Assembly: GCF_038025025.1 (NCBI RefSeq)
Contig: NW_027117347.1
Span: forward strand, 1,178,001 to 1,242,000
Source of the DNA: Phyllosticta citribraziliensis
Taxonomy: Eukaryota
Reading direction: 5' to 3'
Length of the DNA: 64,000 bases
Shown here one piece after another: positions 24,637-44,622 of the stretch (its first letter is position 1; each line of letters opens with the position of its first letter). Below the pieces are notes generated by a model that had not been told where the DNA came from, searched no databases, and saw only the letters and a list, made by a program, of their open reading frames with translations. The translations under genes and the position numbers were made by a program.

Positions 24637-26003
24637 ATGATGCGTTCCGCGTTGATTGGAGTTTTCATCGTGGGTTTGGGCCTCGCCCAAGACCTCACTG
24701 ACCCAGGTGTTGCCGGACCACCACTGGAACTGGTTCACCTCTACTACGACCAATTCCCCACTGGTAATTCCCGGCAGAAGAGATCAGATTATCCTTGACT
24801 AGCATCCCCCAAACTGACACCTCCAAGGCATCGCCGTGTCGTCGACCGGCCGCAAATTCTCCAACTACCCACCAGGCCTTGACGCCAGCAACACCAACAC
24901 GGGGACCAACCGCAAATACACGGTAGCGGAGCTGCTCCCAAACAACACGGAGCGGGCGTACCCATCTCTCGAAATCAACAACCCGCCCGGCGGCGCCATC
25001 AACTACAGCACGACGCCCGCGACCGGCGCCGCCCTCACAACGCACCTCATCGGCGCGCAGTCCGTCGTCATAGACGCGCTGGACCGGCTGTGGATCCTCG
25101 ACACCGGCCGCGCCATCGACCCGCGCAGCGGCGCGCAGGTCCCGGCCCCCGCGCCCGGCGGGCCCAAACTCGTCGGCGTCGACCTGTCCACCGATTCCGT
25201 CTTCCAGACCGTCGTCTTCCCGCCGGACGTCGCGCCCCCGTCGTCCTACCTCAACGACGTGCGCGTCGACGTGCGCGCTGGACTCGCGTACATCACGGAC
25301 TCCAGCGCCGACGCGCTCGTCGTCGTCGATCTAGCCTCTGGCGACAGTTGGCGCCGCCTTGACGGCCACCCGTCGACGCGCGCTGAGCCGCAATTCGTGC
25401 CCAGCGTGTGGGGGACGCCGCTGTACGCGTCGAATGGCGGAGAGCTGACATTCATATCGACGGGCGCCGATGGCATCGCGCTGAGCGCGGATGGCGCGAC
25501 GCTGTTCTACTGTCCGCTGGCGTCGCGCGCGCTGTACGGGGTGCCGACGGCGGCGCTGCAGCGGGGAAGCGAGTTGCAGGCACAGGGCGCCGTCGTCTCG
25601 CTCGGGCAAAAGGGGTTCAGCGACGGCATGGAGAGCGACGACCGCGGGCTGGTGTATTGGGGCAGCATGGAGCAGAATGCCGTGGGCTGGTACAGTGTTG
25701 AGAACGGGACGACGGGGACGTTGGTTAGGGATCCGCGGATCAATTGGGTTGACACGTGTGAGTGATCGCGGCCTCTCTCTCTCCTCCCCCCTTGTATTGC
25801 GTGAGCGGACGACTTGGAGTGGGTGTTGACTTGTTGATTGCGTGTGCGCAGTTTCCATCGCCGCCGACGGCTACCTCTACTTCACTAACAATCAGCTGAA
25901 CCTGGCGCCGGGCTTCAACAGTGGAAACGACAACAGGAAAAAGCCGTACTCGCTGTTCAGGGTGCCATTGCCAGACGGTGGGAGGAAGATCACGCGGCGT
26001 TGA
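24637..26003 (+). CDS. Secreted major royal jelly protein / yellow family protein (3 exons)
   Basis: Signal peptide MMRSALIGVFIVGLGLA; PLELVHLYYDQFPTGIAVS; IDALDRLWILDTG, YLNDVRVD, AYITDS, ADGIALS, INWVDT. Confidence 0.88.
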
Positions 26004-28746: not shown

Positions 28747-30923
28747 GTTGTGCCGATAGGCTGCAGTGGCAAACGACGTCAGTGACCAGGTGAGAGGTAA
28801 GGGCAGCAGGTCGGAAGTGGCGGAGAGGCTCTGCGGAGGAGGTGAGTGGAGGAGGGTCGCGATGCAGAATCCCGGTAGGCGTTGACACGTTGGTGCATCG
28901 GCTTTGTGGGAGTGACGGGACGATGGGTGCGGTCATGGCAAAAGGCACTGGTAAACATGGCCGCAGCTTCTTAGCGTCTTGGCGCCAGCCTGCCAGGCAA
29001 CGAGCACGTGAGCGCTTACTAAGCCGGGAACTTCCTGCCCGGGCCCCGTCTCTGTGCTGGTGCTTTCCAGTCTCTGCTCCTGTCTTGCGCAACATCTCTA
29101 CATCTTACAGCTTGCCTGCGATAGACATAACCTAGGCTGCGACAGCCACCGGACTGTCTTGATTCCACCAACACGGCCTCCTGCACACGGCACAGTGCGA
29201 ACGATTGCTAGCAAACCCAAGCTGCCCCATGGTTTGCTTGGGCCTTGGCTGCAGGAGCCAACTTCTTTTCACCCTGTCTTTGGCCCCGTCCGGCACCAAT
29301 CATAGATGCTTTGTACTTTTCCTGTCAAGTCTTTCGATAACAGAAAGTTTCCACATACGAGTTGTTTGACCATCTTTCGACAAGACAATTATCCGCCTGG
29401 TAATCTTCGATCAAATCCCTGCACTTTCCTCGGCAGTCGAATACATATGTCTTTTCTTGGGTCTCTGATCGATCCGTCACATCCTTTACTCCTTGTTTGG
29501 AGACATCATTTTTGCCTTTGCGAAAGCACTCCCTGAAAGAAGGCCATCTTCGACCAATTTGATTGGCCGAGCACACGGCAGGCTCCAGCGACCGGTCAAT
29601 CAGCAATGAGGCGGCTGGTAAAGGCAAACATGTCGACATGCGAATTGCACGGCGGTGGCTACAGAGCATGTGGGTGGGCTTGGCTCGCGTGAAACATGGA
29701 AAGAGCATACGGAAGACGAAGCCGACGGGCGCTAAAGCATCTGACGTGAAGCAGGAAGTATGAGGCGGGTCAGCGCCACGTTCAGGGACATGAGCTGGGG
29801 ATGACTGGGTGAGTCCCCGACCATGACGGACAAGACCCGCGTGCGTTCCCTGCTCGACGGGCCGTTGCCGACGACAAATTGCCATGGCTGAAAATAATGA
29901 AAAATCACATCTGAACCACTGTCGCAGAAGCAGACGGCTATGGCCGCTTCTCCAGGGGCCGTTGGGCAGACACGAAAAAGGCGCAGAGCCCAACACAGGC
30001 GACGTTTCAACAAGGACCAGCAACGGTAGGCAGATGGTCGAGGTGTTTGCCCAGGACAAGCATGGGATCGACGGCAGTCAGCGCCCAGCGCCAGGCGGAG
30101 GCGAGGATAGGCATGAGGGCAGACCGGTGGTGGTGGGCAAGCAGGCAGACAGACAGACAGCAAAGCCACAATGCGCTGCAGGCAGTCTGACAGCGGCGAT
30201 GGAGGGAGCGATTACCAGTGGCTGACGGACCCGCGGCCCGTTTCAAGTCATGGGTCTCTGTAAGGTTGTACTCGAGGGACCGACGATTTCAAACCATGTC
30301 GGTTGGCGGGGATTGAGGGGCGTCGACTCGAGGGGGCTGGGCTGACGACAGCTACATTACCGAGTGGATGACACAGACCGAGGAGCTGAGCAGTAGATAG
30401 ATATAGCAGACTGACCAGAGGGTTCCCTTGATGCAGGCGGACGTCATATGATCCCAAAGAGAAGCTCGCAGAACTGGGAAGCTGCCGGTGCCCAAGCAGC
30501 TCCCGCCGCCTAACTCTCTGCTCTCGCCCTCTCCCGCTCGCCACTCCCGTCGCTCCCGTCCGAACCTCTCTTCATCTCGCAGCCTGGTGCAGCCAGTTTG
30601 CAGATTTCTTTTTTCCCTTCCTCTACATTTTGTCGCGTCGAGGCACGCAACGCAACCCGACAGCGATCGGCACCACCTCAGGTTGCCTCGCATTCCTCAT
30701 CCTCCCCTCCCCCGCGAGCATCCACCCGCCTGCCCGCCGCCCCCGTCCAACCATCATCGCGCCCGCTCGGCAATCCTCTCCACGGGCCTGGCTGGACCTC
30801 TCTATCTGCTACACTACTTCCCGTTGACTGCTACCACCACCATCTGCCATCTCCATCTTCTGGACTCACCTCGACCTTTAACCTCGACCACCACTGCTGC
30901 CTTGGACTCCGCACTTGGTCGTC

Positions 30924-33745
30924 ATGTCAATCCTCTACAAGGAGCGCGAACGCGAGCGCGATTGGGACGTGGGCTCCCACAGCTCGCGCCGGCCTGGTTC
31001 CACCGTGATTCGACGGTACAAGGCACCCGACAGATCTTCTTGGCACGACGAAGTTGATGTCGAGGAGACGAGAATAGTCACCAGAGACCGCGACTCGTCA
31101 CCTGCCGTCATTCGAAGATATGTCGACGACGACCGTGACGTGGCTGAAGTGCGCGAGTACCGCTACGTTGGTGAAGAAGAACCTGGCTCTCCTCGTCACG
31201 AGTATCGCATCTCCGTCGAACGCGAGCGTTCACCTTCACCTCAGAGGGTCCGCCACTACACCATCGAGCGCGAGGTCGACGACTCAAAGGAACCCTATGC
31301 GCTTGAGAAGTATTCCAAGTCAACTGAGTTCTTCTCCCGTCCGGATCCCCCGCCGCAGCCAATCGTCATTCGTCAAGCTAATCCGCAACCCATCATAGTA
31401 CAAGAGGCTCCGAAACGGCAGCAGATTATTCTGAGGCGCGAGGAGCCTCAGTACGAAATCATCGAGCGTTCAGAGGTCGACGACCGCCTGCGCCGTGATG
31501 ATGATTATTACTACGAGCGGAGAACTCGCAGGCGCCGTGACGACGATGAAGACGATGACGATCGTGGACGCCGGCGTGGACCACGTTCCCCATCGCCTGA
31601 CCGCGACTGGTACAGCGACGATGATTACGAGTACGTCAGGAGGTCTGGTTCCTCTGATCGCAAAAAGGGCAAGCATCATCGTCGGCACATCGCCGAGGGT
31701 CTTGTGGCTGGCGTTGGCGCATCCGAGCTGCTCAGGCATCATCGTCGGAAGCAAGGCGAGAATCCCGGCCCTCACCTGAGGCAAACACTGGGCTATGGTG
31801 CCTTGGGCGCCGTTGGTGCCGAGGCCCTGAACAGAGCAAAGAGTCGCATGGGTGCATCCCGTTCCAGGTCTCGTGAAGGTCATCGCCACAAGCACAGATC
31901 TAAATCCAGGGGGAGAAAGATGGCCGGAGTCGCTGCCCTCGCAGCTCTTGGCGCAGTTGCTTATGCTGCAAGCCGTAACAACAAAAATCAAAATCCCGAG
32001 GCTGTCATGGAGCGCGCCAGCAGATCAAGGCGACGTCGGCACTCCGTCGCTGAAGGTGTTTCGGAGGAGGAGTTCAGCATGTCCGAGTCTCCGGAAAGGT
32101 CATCCAGTCGTCAAAGGGACCCTGAACATCGCAAACGCCGCGTGGCCCAAGCTGGCCTGGCCACTGCTGCAGTTGCTGGTCTCGTCGACCGCGTCCGAAG
32201 CAGATCCCGGAGTCGAAAGGGCAAGAAGTCACGGAGTCGGAGCCGAGTCCGCACAGGCGCTCCTATCGCTGCCGCCGGTTTGGGCGGGGCAGCATTGGCA
32301 GGCCTCTATGAAAAGAGCAGGGCAAAGAAGGAAGATGTCGAAATGGCAAGGGCAAGATCAAGGTCGAGGTCAAGATCTAGATCCAGGTCGGTACCCTCAG
32401 GATCTCGAAGAGCGTCCGCGAGTGACCCAGCTCTTGTAGTATACGGTGGTGATCCCATCTACCCCGAGCCCGGTGCCAGGAGCCGTCGTCGTCGCTCTGG
32501 AAGTCTTGGTTTTCAAGATGACCCTGCCGACCACCGAGGCAGACGTCCATCTTCTCCTGGTTCCGACTCGGATCGAGGCCGTCGACACGGATCCAAAAAG
32601 AATCGCAGTCGAAGTCGATCCAAAGCAGTCGCAGAGGCCGCCGCGCTCGCTGGAGTGGCTGGTGTGGCCGCGCACGAGGCCGCAAAGAGGAGAGAGCGCA
32701 AGAAAGCAGAGAAAGAGAAGAGGCGTAAGGACTCGCTCTTCTAGCATTTTTAGATGCCCAAACTAACATTGCGACAGACAAAGAGGACAGATACAGCCCG
32801 GAACGCTATGGATCTCCCTACGCCGATGGCTACCCTGCAGATCCCAACTACCCTGGCGGTGGATATCCTCAAGCCGCAGGCCCGTACTATCCAGAGACCA
32901 ACGCGTTTCCGCCTCCGCCTGGTGCCATGTACGAGGCACAGCACGCCGCACCAGCTCCTTACAATCCAGCCGACTATGGCCCCGATTATGGCGAGGGTCC
33001 TGCGCCACCGCTCGTTCCCCCAGAAGCGCAGTATCAAGCAGAAGCGCCGTACTTCCCTCCCCCTCCGCGCGAGGCCGCACCTGAACCGGAACCAGAACAG
33101 CTCTACACAGATCCGCGATACATTCGCGGAGATGACAATGTGAGTGCTCCGCCCGTTCCTGAGCACGTTTATCCCGGTGGGTCAACCGCTAGAGGGGTTG
33201 CTGGATGAGTCCACGTTCAGGAAGCTGACGAGTCCTCGCATGCAGATGGTATAAACCCGGAGTTCAGGCCTTCCTCTGCACCACCCCCGTCAAAATCACC
33301 CGGCAAAACAGTCCAATTCGACTTACCGGAACCCACCGACACTCCAGGAAGTGAGAGACCTGATCCGAATGACTTTGTCGACGACGAATTTGCGGAGCCC
33401 TATGAAGATTTGCGAAGCCGTCGCCGGCCTAGACGACCACCACGAGACTTTGACTCCTTTGATGATCCTCTACTTGACCGACCACCATCTCGTCAGGATC
33501 GGCGGCGTCAAAAACGTCGCTCTGCTTCCATGTCCTCAATCGACTCGGGTGAAACGATAGACCTACCTCCTCGCTTTGATCGCACCGGGCACCCTGTTCC
33601 TCAGCGAGGCGAGGATCCGCTGGCAGACAAGTTTGAAGACTTTTTGACCGGACGCAATACTGCGGGCAAGCTGTTCCAAAAATTCACTGGCGACTTTCTG
33701 GGCAAACAGGGAGGCGACTCACCACGAGACCGACCCAGGAGGTGA
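30924..33745 (+). CDS. DUF3824-like Arg/Ser-rich low-complexity protein (3+ exons)
   Basis: Repeated RSRSRSR plus AAAGLGGAALAGLYE helices; PIVIRQ..PIIVQE; introns 32725-32777 and 33177-33245 keep frame to DLPPRFD..EDPLADK. Confidence 0.7.
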
Positions 33746-35965: not shown

Positions 35966-37306
35966 GGCGGCGTCTAAGATGCGAAGAGGCGGTCGTTCGG
36001 GAGGAAGGAGGGTCGCCGGGAGGAGAGAAGAGAGGCGGAGGGAGGAGAGAGAATGGGTCGGGAGAAGGGAGGAGAGCTGAGCGCGGGGTCTTGGCCGGAC
36101 TTTGCAGCTGATACGGGCTTCTGGATGCTTGTGCTATGCCTCTAGGGCGCCGTCGGTCGAGGGTAGGATGGATAAAGGTGGGAAGAGGTAAAAGAACAGT
36201 CGGTAGTAACAGACAAATGTACAAAGAACAACAAGTGGCGTTGAAAAGTGTGACAAGATGGTTTTTGGCGTGAGCAGCGGGGTGTGGAGGAGCAAGTGTG
36301 GGGAAGACTGGAGAAAGTATGAAGCTGTGCCAGTGGATGAAGGGAATGGAGCACCAAAGAATATTCGGGGTTGCGGCTCTTTTGATTGACAGAGGGAGTA
36401 GGGCTTGGCTCGGGCTGAAGGGCAATGTATTGAGGTACTCAGGTCATGCTATGGGACTGACATGTTGTTTGTGATGGCCATGCGCCCGAAGATGCCGAGG
36501 TCCAGCTGCCCCGGATTCGTCGTCGCCTCCTATTGGCTGGAGTCACCGCGGGCCCGCGGCCTCGACGGCTGCGGCCGAGGGCGGACTCCAACTCCCTCGA
36601 CGCCTTGGCCTGTCATCCTCCTCCACCGTTTGTTTCGGACTATCCATCCGCATGACAGCTGCAGCTACCCGTCGCTCCTCTGGCCCTCGTCACCTTTCGC
36701 ATTTGGACCATCCAACATGACCAGCTCCAAAGCCGTATCGCGTCCTTTGCCGCTGCAAACTCCGTCCGTTTGTCCCAGGAGCTCAGGCCAAGCTCCAAGG
36801 GACAAACCCCTCCGGTCGTATAGAGAGCACTTTCACATGCTCAGGCTTTCAATAAACTCCATCCTGCAGCGTGCAGGTGGAACCCGCTTACGGCCCTGTG
36901 ACGTCATTGAATACTCTCACGATGAACGTTCAACAACGCTCAATAAACATCCAGGCTGGAAACAACTGACGTGGCATCCGTCGAAGCAACATTGATCACC
37001 ATCATACACTCAAAATCCAGAGGAACATGGAATCAAACCACCTTCATTATCTGCCTGATGAATCTCGACTACCAAATAATTTTTAGCGACGAGAGCGAAC
37101 TAAGGATACAGCGAGCCATCTATAATACATGCTTCATTTTCACCGTTGTCTGCGAGCTTCACATCCCAAGACCTGCCTGGTTCATCATATTCCTATAATA
37201 CATTGGATTAAGAAAGACAAAAAACGATGACGAGAGCGGTGTATGAAACTGCGCTGGAAAAAACACAAGCACCTCGTTCAGGTGCTGACTTCAGTGCGCG
37301 CCAGTT

Positions 37307-38797
37307 TTAGTTATCTCGCTCCTGAGACTCGGCCAAGTCGAGGCGCTGGCGAGCCTGCTGACGATCAAGAGACAACCGGTTGCGAATGTTGTCGCGGTCC
37401 TCAGCAAGAACACTTGGAGAGTCGTCACGCTTCTCAGGCTCTGGACGGCGTCGAGACGAATCCTCGCTCTCTCTTTGCTGGCGAAACAATGCGAGACGCT
37501 CACGGGCTTGCTGACGATCAAGGTCGAGGCGCGAACGAAGGTCGTCACCCACGGTAGGTTTCTCCTCATCCTCACTACCCTCTTCCTCCTCATCCTCCTG
37601 TGGAGACGGATCACGCTTCTCGGGCCGGCGACGCTCGTCATTGAGTCTGTCCGCACCCTGTCGGTCTTGCTGCAGACGCTGCTCAAATCGCTGCCGGGCT
37701 TGCTCACGATCAAGGTCCAAACGCGAACGAGCGTCCTCAATGCCCGGGGACGGGTTTTGCGCCTCAGCCTCAGCATCGCGTTTCTCGGGACGGCGACGCT
37801 CCTCGTTGAGCCTGTCCGCGCCCTGCCGGTCTTGCTGCAGCCGCTGCTCAAACCGCTGCCGAGCTTGCTCACGATCAAGGTCCAAACGCGAACGAGCATC
37901 CTCGATACCCGGAGGCGGGCTTTGCGCCTCAGCCTCCGCCTCAGCATCACGTTTCTCAGGACGGCGGCGCTCCCCGTTCAGCCTGTCCGCGCCCTCGCGG
38001 TCTTGCTGCAGTCGCTGCTCGAATCGCTGCCGGGCCTGCTCGCGATCGAGATCCAACCTCTGGCGCGAATCTTCAATACCCGGGGGAGGCTGCGCCTCAG
38101 CATCGCGCTTCTCAGGACGACGACGCTCCTCATCGAGACGGTCCGCACGCTCGCGATCCTGCTGCAAGCGTTGTTCGAATCTCTGGCGAGCTTGCTCGCG
38201 GTCAAGATCCAATCTCTGGCGCGAATCCTCAATACCTGGTGGTGTTTGCGCCTCGGCATCCCTCTTTTCAGGGCGGCGACGCTCTTCGTTAAGCCTATCC
38301 GCACGCTCGCGGTCCTGCTGCAGACGAAGTTCGAACTGTTGTCTGGCCTGCTCGCGCTCGAGGTCGTGTCGCGCACGGGCATCCTCGATTGGAGGAGGGG
38401 GATCGCGCTTCTCGGGACGATGGTGAAGCTCATCAATACGGCGGCGATCTTCCTGCAGGCGTTCATTGAAGCGCTGATCGGCTTCAATACGTTCGCGGTC
38501 CGACCTCGCGCGGGCGTCCTCGACGGATGGAGGAGGGCCGTCGGCATCGCGCTTTTCAGGGCGGCGATTCAATTCGTCAAAGCGAGAACGATCTTGCTGC
38601 AAGCGTTGGTTGAAGCGCTGGTCAGCCTGCTGGCGGTCCAAATCCAGCCTCTGACGAGCATCAGCGAGACCGCCTTGGGGGAGAGGGTCGGCATCGCGGC
38701 CAACGATGTTGGGACCAAGTTGGTTGTTGGCTACCGGGGCAGCATGGGTGATGGCGCCAATGGCCAAGAGGGCCATGATCATCTTAATGGACAACAT
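37307..38797 (-). CDS. Secreted Kex2-processed repeat protein (KEP), 9 related units
   Basis: Intronless 496-aa ORF; signal peptide MLSIKMIMALLAIGAITHA; 8 PEKR|D sites; DA/EA/xP dipeptide spacers. Confidence 0.88.
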   Translation of the reverse strand: MLSIKMIMALLAIGAITHAAPVANNQLGPNIVGRDADPLPQGGLADARQRLDLDRQQADQRFNQRLQQDRSRFDELNRRPEKRDADGPPPSVEDARARSDRERIEADQRFNERLQEDRRRIDELHHRPEKRDPPPPIEDARARHDLEREQARQQFELRLQQDRERADRLNEERRRPEKRDAEAQTPPGIEDSRQRLDLDREQARQRFEQRLQQDRERADRLDEERRRPEKRDAEAQPPPGIEDSRQRLDLDREQARQRFEQRLQQDREGADRLNGERRRPEKRDAEAEAEAQSPPPGIEDARSRLDLDREQARQRFEQRLQQDRQGADRLNEERRRPEKRDAEAEAQNPSPGIEDARSRLDLDREQARQRFEQRLQQDRQGADRLNDERRRPEKRDPSPQEDEEEEGSEDEEKPTVGDDLRSRLDLDRQQARERLALFRQQRESEDSSRRRPEPEKRDDSPSVLAEDRDNIRNRLSLDRQQARQRLDLAESQERDN

Positions 38798-41700
38798 ATT
38801 GACAAAAGCAGCGACGATCTTCGAAGGAAAGACTTGGGCGAAATGAAGATGGCGAAGAGAATAAACTCTTCAATACACAGATTCTTATACATCAAGTATG
38901 TAGCTATAGTCACCACCCCAATCTCCTCGGCTTGCACTACTCCACTCTAAACCAAGACTAGGAGACAGACTGAATGGGCTGTAACGTTACCAGGGAGCAG
39001 GAACCTGAAGCAACAGCGGCTACATCAGCCACTCACAGCACAGACGGAGCAGGCGGATCTCTGCACTCGCGACCAAACAGGCAAGCGTCAATAGACCTGT
39101 GAAAGCGCGCATATACCTGAAATGGCCTTGGCCGGTTCCCCCATGTCGATGTGACTTGTACAGTAAGCAGGCCACATGCGGAGCTCACCAGGCACGCGAG
39201 GTCGACGATCGACATATTTTCGGCAGCAGGGAGCATCGATCAGTCGGGAATAGGTACTGCTGTACCTGAGGCAGTAGAGCCGCCAAGCCTATCAACACTA
39301 GTTCCCCAGCAAAATCCGACCAGTCAGAACCACGAAGTTCCAGCTAATTCGTCTTCTAGAAACGTCACAGCGACTGGATTACATACAGCTAGTCGAAGCA
39401 TCATCCAGGAACACCATTCAGAATGTTCAATGATTGTCGACTGTCACTGAATCTTTTCCTCTTATGCCTTGCGGGCAACGCCGCAACACGATGTGGGCAA
39501 CACAGGAAGAACAATAAATTATGCGATCCTACTGCAACGAATGATCAAAGAAGGCCAAGACGACACCAGAATGATGACTTTGAGCGCAAGTGCCTCTGTT
39601 TCTGGCACTTGCTGCGGGCGCCATCCCGTTGCGGCGCCACACCTTTGTTGACTCATCCCTGTCAGTATTATTAGCCTGAATCCCAGGCAAGCTGTGCTGG
39701 CACCAGAAGAATCTCGATATTTGAAAGGTCGACAAACCACAGTGGTGCAACGGTCTCTCAGATTGCGCGAAAATGGTGCGAATGCCACCAGTTCGTGGGA
39801 ATTATGCTGAATGGCATTTTTCTCGATCTAATCAGCTCGGCTAGCCTGTCCTGCGAATTTTCCAGACGCAACCTTTACTATGACACGCCATTCTTCTCCC
39901 GCGTCTGCAGCCGCCCATCCCTACTTCGCTCCCGTTCCGTCTCCCCTGATCCGGGCAAGTGGAAACGGTCAAGCCATCCCGCGCGCCCCTCCCATTCCAA
40001 CGAAATCGCAATACGGAGCCAACCGTTTGACTTGGGGTGTTGGAGAAGAGCAGTGAGTGCAACATCGAATCCTCTCACTGGATGGCCTTGTGTGATGCCA
40101 ATGTTCATCTGTCACTCATCACTGGTGACGGCATGCCGTCGCCCACAGTAGCGCCCAGGGCCAGCCGAAACTAGCGGGAATGAAATGGATTCGGCAGCCG
40201 CTGCTTGGCTTGTTCGGCACTTGGTGCCAGTCATAGTCTCAAGTCGCTGTTGTTCCTGTGCCGCCCGCCCGTACGGCACCTAATGGGTCCCTCCTCCTTG
40301 CGCGGCCTAATTAAGCAACACCGAGATATGGAGGAGTTGCTTAGCGTCGTGACAGCAGTGTTACGTCCTCTCTGCGCCCTGTCTACCAAGCGGCATGTAC
40401 CGCTCGAGGTCTTGCCTAACTTCTTGGCTCTCGCTCAGCTATTCGTCCGCTTACGCTCCCGAAGCGGTTTCTTGCCGTTCGGCACCGTCATTCGCGCGGA
40501 CGCCGTGCTGTCTGCTCTGCGCTACCGAGAACTTCATCTCCAAACATCGCGGCTCTTCGACATCGACAAGACAACTCAGCAGTGAGGTCGGCTCGCCGAA
40601 GCCATCGAATATCCAGGCAAAAGCTGGTGTGTTGGAGACCGGTGGGCGGGACCCCGTCAACGTCGATTTCTTGGTAGTCTTCCTTTCTCGCATATGATCG
40701 TCACAGTTGTCTTGCGCAAAGCTTAAAAAATTACTCATCCAGGAGTACTGTGTAGTAAACTGCGACACCGCGCAAAGGGGCTGAGCATCCCGGTCTCTCA
40801 GACATGCATCGTTCGGCGAAGCCGATCGTCGACGTTGGTGGTTGACTGCTCAACGCTGGTGCAGCCACGGTAGGCGTAAATGTGAAGTGGCAAACGTCAA
40901 CATCCAATACGACCTGCGAATTACGCGTCCCTATCCCCTTCGTCTTCTCTTCCTATTCGTGTCTGCCCCAAAATTTCCCAAATTCTTCTACGGAGCGAGC
41001 AAATCGGCACTTCGCCGACCGACAGACTTGCTCTCCACACCAACGCATTTCTCGCCGCGCCACCAACCGCCAACCGCCAACCGCCGCAGCAAATAAGCTT
41101 AACCCACCAAGCTCGCGCCCGTGCGCCCCCAAACTCTCTTTTTTCCATTCGCTGGCCCGCCTGCTGGCCGCCTACATACTATACCTACAGTACTCACCTC
41201 CTGTTTTTGCGGCTGCCGCCGCCACACGTTTCCGCAGGCGGAGAGGAGGGCTGTCGTGGGCGGAGGAGGCGTAGCAGGGCGGCCTCTTGGCTGCCTCAGC
41301 CAGAAAACCCCGCGAGTACTCTATGCAGGGCACGCGTAATATGCGCGGCGAAAGCTTCGAGGCTGCCTGACGTCGGCAATTGTTGGTGCAGAGTGCCGTG
41401 ATCTTGGCTGGCGCGTGGGCTGGTTGTGGGGCCGGCACATGTGGTTGATGTGATGACCTTGCAGTTGCGTTGCCTGTAATCTGTGTGCGCTTTGGAGACT
41501 TGAGGGGCATCGATTGCTGCTGCGGTTGGTCTTGTGGGTCAAGTCGTTTTGGTCTGTTCATGCGCTTGCAGTTTTCCTCTGTCCATGATCTTCGTTTGTC
41601 CTCATGTTGTCATCGTCCTACGTCGTCGGGTTTGCATCTACCACAAGTCGTTGCTTGCGATGCTGGATCGTCGACCATCACATCATTGAAATCCCTCTTT

Positions 41701-42468
41701 TGCAACACAGCCAAGGCTCTTAGGTGACGATTGGGCGATTTGGAGTGAATGAGAAGCCATGAGTTGGCGCGAACTTCTCCTGCAGGATCTGAGATGGCGA
41801 TGCTCTGGCGACCGAAGCAAACACTTCGCCAACGCCGCACCAAACGGACCACTTGGCTCTGGTCGTTCTTGCCACCTCTATGGGCTCTGGAGTAGGTTTG
41901 TCGTCGCCGATTTAGTCCCGTCCTATTGGCTCATCTTGTGAACATGGTCGTGGAGGTAGAGCTGGTAGCCGGGCACATTCGGAAGCAGCGAGGACTCACT
42001 GAGTGCCATCGAACGCCAAACGGCCAGCACTTCGCGCCAATTCTCTTTCATTGCTCTGCCCAGAAACCTTTGTTCCGCAACGGAATTTTTGGGGGCGGAC
42101 ACCGTGGTGGGAAAATTCGAGGTGGGTCGGTGCGGCCAAGGCTTGCGACACAGATGTACTTTCTGTGCAAATGCGCAAAAAAGAAAGATTGGAGGCTCGG
42201 CAGCCAGAAGTCGAGAGCTTTTCCAACCCCTCATAATGACTAGTCGACGCCAGCAGGACCGACAACGCAGGATGGAGGATTGCCGAAACTCTGGAAGAGG
42301 CGAGTGGTGGCGTACTAAGAGAGCTTTCTCCTGTATACTGAGGCTGGCAACACGCTACTTTTCACCCTCGGGCTTCACTCCACTGACACCACATTATCCA
42401 GGAGAATGCTTCAATTCTGATCGCGTTCCTCCAGTCGCAGCAACGTGTGCGGCTGGCGCTCACCCAAC

Positions 42469-42837
42469 TCACTTTTGCTCAGACTCGTCCTCGACCTCCT
42501 GATCACCACCATTCTGCATGCCCGCGCTCGTGTCCCTACCGCCACCACGACCGCCACCGTCATCACCTCCGCGTCCATCATCAAACGCACCGCGAGGCGC
42601 AGCCGCAGCAAAGTGCACGCAGCTGCTCCTCGCTGCCTGCCGGCTGCGCGACAGCAGATCGACACCGCCGCCAATGACGACCTCGCAGTTGGGGTAGTCG
42701 GCGCAGTAGGTCCAGGACAGGTCGATGACGTCGTCAACGGTGCAGTTGAGGCGGGTGAGGGCTGATTGGCAAAGCTCGATGTCTGGCGAGCGCAGGAAAC
42801 AGCCGCAGAGGAAGAGCGTTTTGTGCGTTTTGCACAT
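42469..42837 (-). CDS. Small Cys-rich protein (MC-x8-CGC type) with Gly/acidic tail
   Basis: AAAATG start at 42837; TATA-like TATATA ~42968; Cys pattern shared with 43969-44184. Confidence 0.55.
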   Translation of the reverse strand: MCKTHKTLFLCGCFLRSPDIELCQSALTRLNCTVDDVIDLSWTYCADYPNCEVVIGGGVDLLSRSRQAARSSCVHFAAAAPRGAFDDGRGGDDGGGRGGGRDTSAGMQNGGDQEVEDESEQK

Positions 42838-43968
42838 TTTGAGTTGATAGTTGGTTTTGAGGGGTTGTGGGTGCCACTGAGGCTTGGAAGTGAGGCTGTC
42901 GAACCGGGGATATGCACTTGACCGTTGTAAAGCGGATTGTAGTTGGAAGAGTGAATTCTGAAAGTGGTATATAAGAGAGAACTCACTCATCTGCGAAGCT
43001 TTTATACACTGGTCATATGCGCTATCCAGTTGGTCTGTACAACAACCTATCCTTTTGAGCATCGTCAACAAGAACAACATTTGTTCTTCAAAACAGCAGT
43101 CGCAGACGTGGTGCCAGCTGGGGCCATTCGCAAGATAGTCAAAAGTCCACACGTTCCTGATGAACCGAGCATTTGTTCAAAGGAACTCGTGAAATACTTG
43201 CAAAGAGGCTCAGTTCCCTGGCAGGCGGGCCGTTGTTTGCTGTCTTGGCCGGTGTATGCTGTTCACCACGTGGAGCCAGTAGCCGTGATGGAGCGTTGGA
43301 TGCAGTCAGTGGAGCTGGACCTTGGACCCACTGAGGTGCTGGCTCCTGGAGGATCATCATCGCTGCTGGCAAGGTAGGAAGCATTCATCAGCTTGGTAGT
43401 AGGCCCGAACATGACAGCGGCTATGAGCCAGCGGGAGTCGTTGCGGACTCTCATTTGCTAGGTTTTTGAAAGTGGCGAATTGAGGGTCAGTGAGTTAGTC
43501 ATTCAGAGAGAGCTGCATCAGTCTCTGCAAAGAAAGATACGTTTGGAGTCCTGCAGAGATGCGGCAGAAGGTTTGGTAGTCAAGATAAACGGCAGCTTAG
43601 ACCACGGACTTGTGGCTGACACGGGCGGGAGGCGTCCGCTGCACGTTGCCTAGGTGTCGCGCTGGTGGAGGACATGGTCAGCCTTGCTGAGTTTGTTTGT
43701 GCCTAAAATAGACCCAGTTTCAGAGGTCCAGCTGCAACAACTTCTTTCTCTGAAAACAGACTTTCTCTTCGGAGTCCTCGAGTGGTCATTGATGATTGTC
43801 CTGGAGATGGCATCTTGCGCCTGCTGAGGCTCTTTGTTGCTGGTCGTTTTCGCCAGACGGACTGGATTCTTCTGATTTAAACTTTGGCTTGATCAACCTC
43901 CTTTCGCTCCCGAAAAACGACGTCGTCGCGCATCTTTCCAACCTCAGGCCCATACGAAATCGTTTGCC

Positions 43969-44184
43969 ATGTGCAGTACCGAGCTCTTCAGCTTCGCCTG
44001 CGGCCACGCGTATTACGGCAAAGAGCGGCAGGTTTGCCAGCAGGCCGACGATGGGAGTCCATGCCATACGAAGGTAAAGCACATTAGGAGCGAGGAGAAA
44101 TGCCAGACTTGCAGAGTCGGCGGCAGTGGATCCAATGTCTTTTTGCGACTTTTGGACATCAGGCCAAGGTCTGCCAGCACGTAA
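43969..44184 (+). CDS. Small Cys-rich protein (MC-x8-CGH..CxxC type)
   Basis: GCCATG start; 71 aa; Cys positions 2/11/23/32/45 identical to the divergent neighbour. Confidence 0.55.
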   Translation: MCSTELFSFACGHAYYGKERQVCQQADDGSPCHTKVKHIRSEEKCQTCRVGGSGSNVFLRLLDIRPRSAST

Positions 44185-44622
44185 GAACCTGCGATCTGAG
44201 ATAAAGGAGCGAGCGGGACTCATGTCGGGTGCAGGCCTTCCAGCGTTGCGCCGAGCTTCTTTTGATTGTCCATCGAGTGGGTAAGTGAGTTCATTCTGGG
44301 CCATGTTTTGACGGTTGTGTTGACTTGGTGTTGGTAGAAAGACGCTGGTCGTCAATTCACTTCGTATTTGCTACGCCACGACACGGACAAGACGAACCAA
44401 GACAGCTTGGTATGCGGATGACCCGGTGGCGTTTGTTGGTGCTGAAGGCGAATTGTTGACAAGAAAACACAGGGCTCGTTAGGAAGACCGAAGCGTGGTT
44501 TGTTATGGTGGCTCTCCCTCAGGTCTCACCATGACGTGCCTGGGGAACATCGGGCCGAAGTCGCTCACGCAGATCCCGACTTTTGACGGCTGACTCAATT
44601 ATTTCCCTCGACCACACCTCGA

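Follow-up and report, generated by a model that had tools for sequence, protein, structure and literature searches.

The genus Phyllosticta (Dothideomycetes, Botryosphaeriales) counts citrus pathogens and endophytes among its members. We analysed 64 kb of the Phyllosticta citribraziliensis genome (NCBI RefSeq assembly GCF_038025025.1, contig NW_027117347.1, positions 1,178,001 to 1,242,000 of the forward strand; hereafter the window), and we describe here a gene that probably encodes a precursor of multiple secreted peptides. An intact, intronless open reading frame (ORF) lies at window positions 37307–38797 on the minus strand and runs from ATG to TAA, with a product of 496 amino acids (aa). 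Nine homologous units of 39–62 aa (unit 1 has 49 aa past a short pro-piece) span aa 35–496, that is, 462 of the 496 residues (Table 1). The N-terminus ahead of them looks like a signal peptide: by inspection, Lys5 and a 12-residue apolar run lie within the first 28 aa, and the putative cleavage site reads Thr-His-Ala/Ala. All eight Lys-Arg sites of the protein read Pro-Glu-Lys-Arg/Asp, and cutting after each of them gives nine pieces, the first of which (aa 1–83) comprises the signal, the pro-piece and unit 1. A candidate TATA-like hexamer, recognised from sequence only, is situated about 87 nt 5′ of the ATG.

Table 1. The putative precursor gene, its parts and its annotated surroundings (window positions; helices are AlphaFold2 predictions, in residues of the 496-aa protein)
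Feature	Position	Strand	Remarks
Repeat-protein precursor (putative), complete coding sequence (CDS)	37307..38797	-	496 aa plus stop, no intron; 17 of 22 listed differences from a related organism (organism B) synonymous
Signal-peptide-like N-terminus, aa 1–19	38741..38797	-	predicted cut after Thr-His-Ala; predicted local distance difference test (pLDDT) <50
Short pro-piece, aa 20–34, ending Gly-Arg	38696..38740	-	cut hypothetical (monobasic site)
Unit 1, aa 35–83	38549..38695	-	spacer DA-DP-LP then Gln; Pro-Glu-Lys-Arg end; helix 43–77
Unit 2, aa 84–131	38405..38548	-	spacer DA only; no N-terminal Gln; helix 92–125
Unit 3, aa 132–179	38261..38404	-	spacer DP-PP; no N-terminal Gln; helix 137–174
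Unit 4, aa 180–231	38105..38260	-	spacer DA-EA then Gln; helix 189–229
Unit 5, aa 232–283	37949..38104	-	spacer DA-EA then Gln, Gln then Pro; helix 241–277
Unit 6, aa 284–340	37778..37948	-	spacer DA-EA-EA-EA then Gln; helix 298–344
Unit 7, aa 341–395	37613..37777	-	spacer DA-EA-EA then Gln; helix 351–389
Unit 8, aa 396–457	37427..37612	-	spacer DP-SP then Gln; extra acidic insert, net charge -9; helix 416–448
Unit 9, aa 458–496, C-terminal	37310..37426	-	no spacer, no closing Lys-Arg; helix 462–495
166-nt GC..AG stretch cut out as 'intron' by the public gene model	37670..37835	-	shifts frame
Mitochondrial-carrier gene	~34.8–36.1 kb	-	Pfam
SUA5	44.6–46.2 kb	+	Pfam

The units form a tandem array that is still visible at the DNA level, where Tandem Repeats Finder reports periods of 165 and 156 nt (2.7 and 4.4 copies, 86% and 78% matches). 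Aligned with unit 6, units 1–5 are 67, 56, 81, 87 and 90% identical, and units 7–9 are 93, 49 and 41% identical. The composition is strongly skewed: Arg, Glu, Asp and Gln account for 279 of the 496 residues, and Cys, Trp and Tyr are absent. Another distinguishing feature is the placement of Lys: eight of the ten in the entire precursor occupy position P2 of the junctions, as compared with 101 Arg (20% of residues), which is the pattern that would be expected under selection for the Lys-Arg pair that kexin prefers.

The gene is real and constrained, beyond what chance or recent duplication would produce. Over a core of 43 codons, all ten pairwise comparisons among units 3–7 combine a high proportion of synonymous differences (pS 0.40–0.88) with a low proportion of non-synonymous ones (pN 0.01–0.13), for pN/pS ratios of 0.03–0.15; for units 1 and 2 the ratio is 0.25. 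Because synonymous sites are near saturation and non-synonymous differences are few, the unit copies are old and held constant in protein, and are not a young array. The eight junctions, too, are spelled with varied codons (CCT/CCC, GAA/GAG, AAG/AAA, CGC/CGT/AGG, GAT/GAC). We also compared the locus with contigs from run X5 of a related organism (organism B), which are 80–95% alike over this region; this comparison uses the 40 listed of 301 differences, picked as 'best supported', and is thus a sample and not a census. Of these, 22 fall in the CDS; 17 are synonymous, 17 are at codon position 3 in the 496-aa frame, and none alters a Lys-Arg codon. A separate observation is that organism B has several contigs per place over 37100–38950, with skips and back-steps of 80–484 nt relative to the window, which suggests that its units differ in number or arrangement or that run X5 holds multiple copies or strains.

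The public gene model for this locus has a different C-terminus. It is an uncharacterised 446-aa P. citribraziliensis protein (Botryosphaeriales; here P0002) that equals the window protein at residues 1–320 and then diverges. Deleting exactly positions 37670–37835 from the window DNA gives all 446 residues of P0002, including a 116-residue out-of-frame tail; therefore, the window is the same sequence as the annotated locus. Five of the listed organism B differences lie downstream of this 166-nt stretch, and all five are synonymous if the frame continues uninterrupted, whereas none is synonymous in the frame of the annotated tail. Furthermore, the X1 and X2 contigs are unbroken over both ends of the stretch, with no such joint among those listed. 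The 'intron' is most likely an annotation error. Since the downstream differences are synonymous only in the uninterrupted frame and the contigs are unbroken, we conclude that the true product would be the 496-aa form. The public model loses units 7–9, which are replaced by the 116-aa tail, and its apparently wrong last 116 residues would keep three of the nine units out of secretome screens and out of screens for Kex2-processed repeat proteins (KEPs).

The sequence that follows each Lys-Arg is suggestive of a second processing activity. Seven of the eight post-Lys-Arg junctions open with at least one X-Ala/X-Pro dipeptide, which is the signature of Ste13; unit 9 opens with Asp-Asp instead. 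We simulated trimming by removing C-terminal basic residues and N-terminal X-Ala/X-Pro dipeptides, and this procedure exposes an N-terminal Gln in six of the nine units (1, 4, 5, 6, 7 and 8) after spacers of two to four dipeptides. Over all units the spacer comprises 0–4 dipeptides, and the number of Glu-Ala dipeptides differs even between units of 87–93% core identity; such variation between near-identical cores would be natural for a spacer that is thrown away. Unit 5 has Pro directly after the exposed Gln, and further trimming is therefore conceivable there if the Gln does not cyclise. An earlier note on this DNA had described a secreted multi-peptide precursor with an alpha-factor-style Kex2 and Ste13 grammar. 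Its tally of a signal peptide, a pro-region ending in Gly-Arg, nine units and eight sites is right in every count; the simulation returns exactly the spacers that it listed, with Gln exposed in the same six units; and the architecture supports its general proposal.

We hypothesize that the precursor is cut by kexin, a Kex1-type carboxypeptidase and a Ste13-type aminopeptidase to give nine soluble helical peptides, six of them potentially capped with pyroglutamate. We consider this account likely; that degree of confidence applies to the precursor and its processing, and not to what the peptides do. We infer the steps from what is established for this pathway in yeast and other fungi. The precursor would enter the endoplasmic reticulum, and kexin (Kex2/KexB) in the Golgi would cut after each of the eight Lys-Arg pairs; a Kex1-type carboxypeptidase would then take off the C-terminal Arg, or Lys-Arg, and a dipeptidyl aminopeptidase of the Ste13/DapB type would take off the X-Ala/X-Pro spacers. 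Secretion would then deliver nine linear peptides of about 39–56 aa, of which six would begin with Gln, and this residue could cyclise to pyroglutamate and so halt further trimming. Candidalysin keeps its Lys after Kex1 (PMC5784256), and by analogy Kex1 might leave Lys on the Phyllosticta peptides as well.

What would be released is unusual in its physical character. The predicted mature peptides are 39–56 aa in length, with grand average of hydropathy (GRAVY) values of -1.6 to -2.3 and a maximum 18-residue hydrophobic moment of 0.29–0.48; the predicted net charge is +1 to -3 in eight of the nine, and -9 in unit 8. The earlier description of these peptides as 'highly charged' therefore holds for the abundance of charged residues but not for the net charge, which is near neutral overall. 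As predicted from sequence, the profile is not that of pore-forming, antimicrobial-cationic or hydrophobin-like peptides. Being extremely hydrophilic and near neutral, lacking Cys, Trp and Tyr, and with apolar residues confined to a narrow stripe, the peptides are best described as soluble helical polyampholytes, and therefore as neither membrane-lytic, nor hydrophobin-like, nor cross-linked products of the class of ribosomally synthesised peptides with post-translational modification (RiPPs). The near-neutral net charge and the low hydrophobic moment also mean that membrane or antimicrobial assays are poorly motivated.

The helical character derives from an AlphaFold2 model computed from the single sequence, in which each unit forms one helix of 33–47 residues, with a short extra helix at 279–284. 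Block means of pLDDT are about 90 in the helices, 48–58 in most linker blocks and 65–67 in two. The predicted template-modelling score (pTM) for the whole precursor is 0.21, which is consistent with unit helices that would not pack against one another and with cut sites that lie in flexible linkers and would be exposed. The same model points towards single alpha-helix (ER/K-type) character for the units. A homodimer prediction for trimmed unit 6 scored 0.01 and counts as no answer.

Searches for relatives returned almost exclusively the locus itself. An exhaustive phmmer search of 1.84 billion representative proteins gave only one match, P0002, which was also the one match among 8000 scored candidates in a word-index search near the query length; a unit profile run against longer proteins again found a single match, at the same locus, and a word-indexed search of shorter proteins found none. 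No match was obtained among PDB sequences, and in JGI metagenome contigs none of 600 and none of 468 pattern matches was confirmed. Pfam assigned no family to the precursor (two sub-threshold chance matches), and the best ESM Atlas score was 0.77, with nothing for aa 180–395. The PMC6339444 supplements contain none of three unit motifs, as far as their PDF text is complete, and neither Phyllosticta nor Guignardia appears in the available supplements of the two KEP surveys (PMC6339444, PMC7329392). Our literature search found no paper that joins Phyllosticta and Kex2. As far as these searches reach, this appears to be an orphan peptide family, and no KEP from Phyllosticta seems to be in print.

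The Phyllosticta precursor nonetheless belongs, by criteria applied to its predicted sequence, to the KEP class. A KEP is defined by a signal peptide and three or more tandem repeats, each 8–100 aa long and bounded by KR, RR or KK (PMC7329392), and one survey pipeline sets a minimum repeat share of 15% of the protein (PMC6339444); here we find the signal peptide (by inspection) and nine repeats of 39–62 aa between eight Lys-Arg, covering 462 of 496 residues. In 1461 fungal genomes, 7878 KEPs were counted, comprising 838 types as well as 2560 proteins that stand alone without a homologue (about a third), and 78% have no DUF3328 neighbour (PMC7329392). Ste13 signatures have been described in non-pheromone KEPs and proposed as a mark of hormone-like peptides (PMC6339444). 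Mass spectrometry of Coprinopsis KEPs has recorded the dibasic cut, removal of X-Ala/X-Pro and an N-terminal pyro-Gln, and pyro-Glu is stated to protect the N-terminus (PMC9769878). Each element of the Phyllosticta design is thus already in print, and the proposal that the gene represents an undescribed system does not survive: it fits the KEP definition, and both KEPs with Ste13 signatures and pyroglutamate and peptides of 35–53 aa have been published (PMC6339444, PMC7329392, PMC9769878, PMC4617103).

A close likeness in layout is to Coprinopsis cinerea KEP 490115 and to other KEPs in the surveys, which share with the Phyllosticta protein a signal peptide, tandem near-identical cores, dibasic sites and X-Ala/X-Pro spacers (PMC9769878, PMC6339444, PMC7329392), as well as an N-terminal Gln after trimming, no DUF3328 neighbour and, often, a lineage-restricted distribution. 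On the other hand, the Phyllosticta cores are predicted helical polyampholytes of about 45 aa, as against 6–20 aa in the KEP examples seen in these sources, and neither the motif search of the PMC6339444 supplement nor phmmer found any sequence similarity between its units and catalogued KEPs.

Long peptides have been described in two better studied precursors. Ustilago maydis Rep1, whose peptides are 35–53 aa (PMC4617103), and Hum3 also give about ten long peptides from one secreted precursor with Kex2 sites (PMC4617103, PMC3133707), which sets a precedent for KEP products that greatly exceed pheromones in length. However, the peptides of Rep1 are amphipathic and assemble on hyphae as amyloid-like fibrils, whereas those from Phyllosticta would be strongly hydrophilic and of low hydrophobic moment; moreover, Rep1 is a basidiomycete protein that lacks a Ste13 signature (PMC6339444), and the Phyllosticta precursor carries Ste13 spacers. 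A repellent of the Rep1 type was considered and set aside: GRAVY is about -2, the moments are 0.29–0.48, and the only phmmer match is the same locus. Candida albicans Ece1p is, likewise, a secreted ascomycete polyprotein, with seven Lys-Arg; Kex2 followed by Kex1 releases peptides of ~30 aa from it, and the active peptide is helical (PMC5784256). In contrast to the Phyllosticta units, its peptides are not homologous repeats and have no Ste13 spacers, and candidalysin is hydrophobic and cytolytic (PMC5784256) where the Phyllosticta peptides would be near neutral and hydrophilic.

Our processing account has several points against it. Every step is read from motifs and would have to hold in the fungus. 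Unit 1 can be freed only by cleavage behind Gly-Arg34, a monobasic site unlike those of Kex2. Kexin is not known to favour Pro at P4 or Glu at P3. Units 2, 3 and 9 expose no Gln, so that convergence on this residue is a tendency and not a rule. Conservation of the sites across species is gauged from 22 listed differences in one related organism, no orthologous protein of another species occurs among the databases searched, and the sole public annotation of the locus ends in a different, frame-shifted C-terminus. Finally, the structure model is a single-sequence prediction of low pTM, and its helices are to be taken as propensity.

These points leave room for other explanations. One is that the secreted protein does its work as a whole, as nine charged helices strung on flexible links in, for example, wall, matrix or mucilage, and that its Lys-Arg pairs undergo little or no cutting. 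The AlphaFold2 model does have a beads-on-a-string appearance, extreme hydrophilicity with near-neutral charge would suit a hydrated matrix polymer, just two Kex2 sites of Ece1p are required for candidalysin (PMC5784256), and the Coprinopsis KEP extracts also held intact precursor (PMC9769878). It is less easy to see why an uncut protein would confine its Lys almost entirely to eight junctions though one residue in five is Arg, or keep the junction motif through saturated synonymous change, and the variable X-Ala/X-Pro spacers would have no obvious role in it; we regard an intact string as rather unlikely. Non-genic origin is scarcely credible. Such a chance frame in a GC-rich tandem repeat, or an antisense image of a plus-strand gene, might be entertained because the repeat contains several long open frames, with both strands represented, because the wobble-aligned antisense frame scores 14 synonymous among the same 22 listed differences, and because one X2 contig has a GT..AG skip in plus orientation just upstream. 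But the minus frame is unique in reading through the entire array between an ATG with a signal-like start and a stop; it reaches 17 synonymous differences against 2–3 in the four non-aligned frames; and unit pN/pS is 0.03–0.15. The plus frames translate into Ser/Arg/Cys-rich strings without repeat logic, and the public annotation also uses the minus frame. A chance or antisense ORF is thus largely contradicted by frame, synonymous counts and pN/pS.

Kexin sites are also shared with two classes of precursor whose products differ from those proposed here. Ustiloxin-type RiPP precursors combine a signal peptide with Kex2-separated repeats (PMC7329392), and the cores could in principle be tailored by enzymes encoded elsewhere in the genome. 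We examined the neighbourhood by Pfam scans of 234 stop-to-stop ORF translations in the window (90 of at least 110 aa at 23.5–52.2 kb, 62 of 50–109 aa at 38.8–44.8 kb, and 82 of at least 130 aa in the rest). None matched DUF3328/UstYa, tyrosinase, kexin, S9 dipeptidyl peptidase or glutaminyl cyclase, although short exons below the length cut-offs could escape; the average distance given for DUF3328 genes is 3.09 genes (PMC7329392). Moreover, the cores are about 45 aa, predicted to be helical, and without Tyr, Trp or Cys to cross-link; among the residues expected of a dikaritin core (Tyr, His-His or Trp), we find only one His-His, in unit 2. A RiPP is very unlikely, and the earlier preference for linear peptides over a dikaritin is supported. 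As for alpha-type mating pheromones, the precursors MFalpha1, Ppg1 and Ccg-4 resemble the Phyllosticta protein in having Lys-Arg, then variable Glu/Asp-Ala repeats, then the core, and the Kex2/Kex1/Ste13 grammar is common to both (PMC6339444). Ascomycete alpha pheromone cores, however, are 9–24 aa and typically carry Trp, Cys or Pro-Gly motifs (PMC6339444), whereas the Phyllosticta peptides are 39–56 aa, have no Trp or Cys and match no Pfam pheromone family. A pheromone is already contradicted by peptide length and composition, and its probability is practically nil.

We return to the preferred reading, a precursor processed into nine peptides, and to the question of what these might do. Our guess, which is tentative and less than even, is a sequence-specific extracellular ligand, either a self-signal or host-directed, of which many copies would be made per transcript. 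A bulk role in matrix or hydration ranks second and is, again as a guess, doubtful. The ligand is favoured over the bulk role because old copies differ hardly at all over the entire 43-aa core despite saturated synonymous change, which would better fit a specific binding partner. It is a bolder idea, and one that we offer with considerable doubt, that these would be a new functional type of KEP: pyroGlu-capped single-helix polyampholytes of ~45 aa that act as ligands on the fungus or its citrus host and are not pheromones, toxins, repellents or RiPPs. The KEP class is large in fungi, and the functions of most of its members are obscure; of the few long-peptide members that have been studied, Rep1 and Ece1, both are biologically important. 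The Phyllosticta precursor joins a pheromone-type Ste13/Gln grammar to peptides that are unusually long, soluble, predicted to be helical and strongly conserved. What is new here is a putative orphan family of near-neutral, extremely hydrophilic peptides of ~45 aa, together with a public gene model in need of correction. The gene yields predicted masses that would serve peptidomics as a clean target set, and its products are a candidate family of signals or effectors.

The surroundings of the gene agree with its earlier placement in a gene-poor stretch before SUA5. A mitochondrial-carrier gene lies on one side and SUA5 on the other, and in the adjoining ~5.7 kb from the KEP gene to SUA5 (38900–44500) no ORF of at least 50 aa has a Pfam match. 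The largest ORF there is 235 aa (42469–43176, minus strand), and the interval is either intergenic or holds lineage-specific genes. No second KEP-like ORF was found among 109 ATG-initiated ORFs of at least 100 aa; the next by Lys-Arg density have 2–4 Lys-Arg, as compared with eight. Elsewhere in the window, the plus strand has an ORF with a Major-royal-jelly-protein (MRJP) domain at 24818–25762 and, at 30882–33205, a 620-aa ORF that ends in a DUF3824 domain.

Two details of the X2 contigs flank the gene. One contig skips 66 nt at 38896–38961, with GT..AG ends in plus orientation, about 100–165 nt upstream of the KEP start codon; there is no X2 cover inside the skip, X1 reads through, and no long plus-strand ORF spans it. 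This skip may mark a spliced plus-strand (divergent or antisense) transcript, which would suggest that X2 is RNA. On the 3′ side of the gene, an X2 contig stops at 37009, 298 nt past the stop codon, and X1 continues; the contig ends in eight loose letters, presumably the end of a sequencing adapter, which they resemble. Position 37009 could be the 3′ end of the mRNA.

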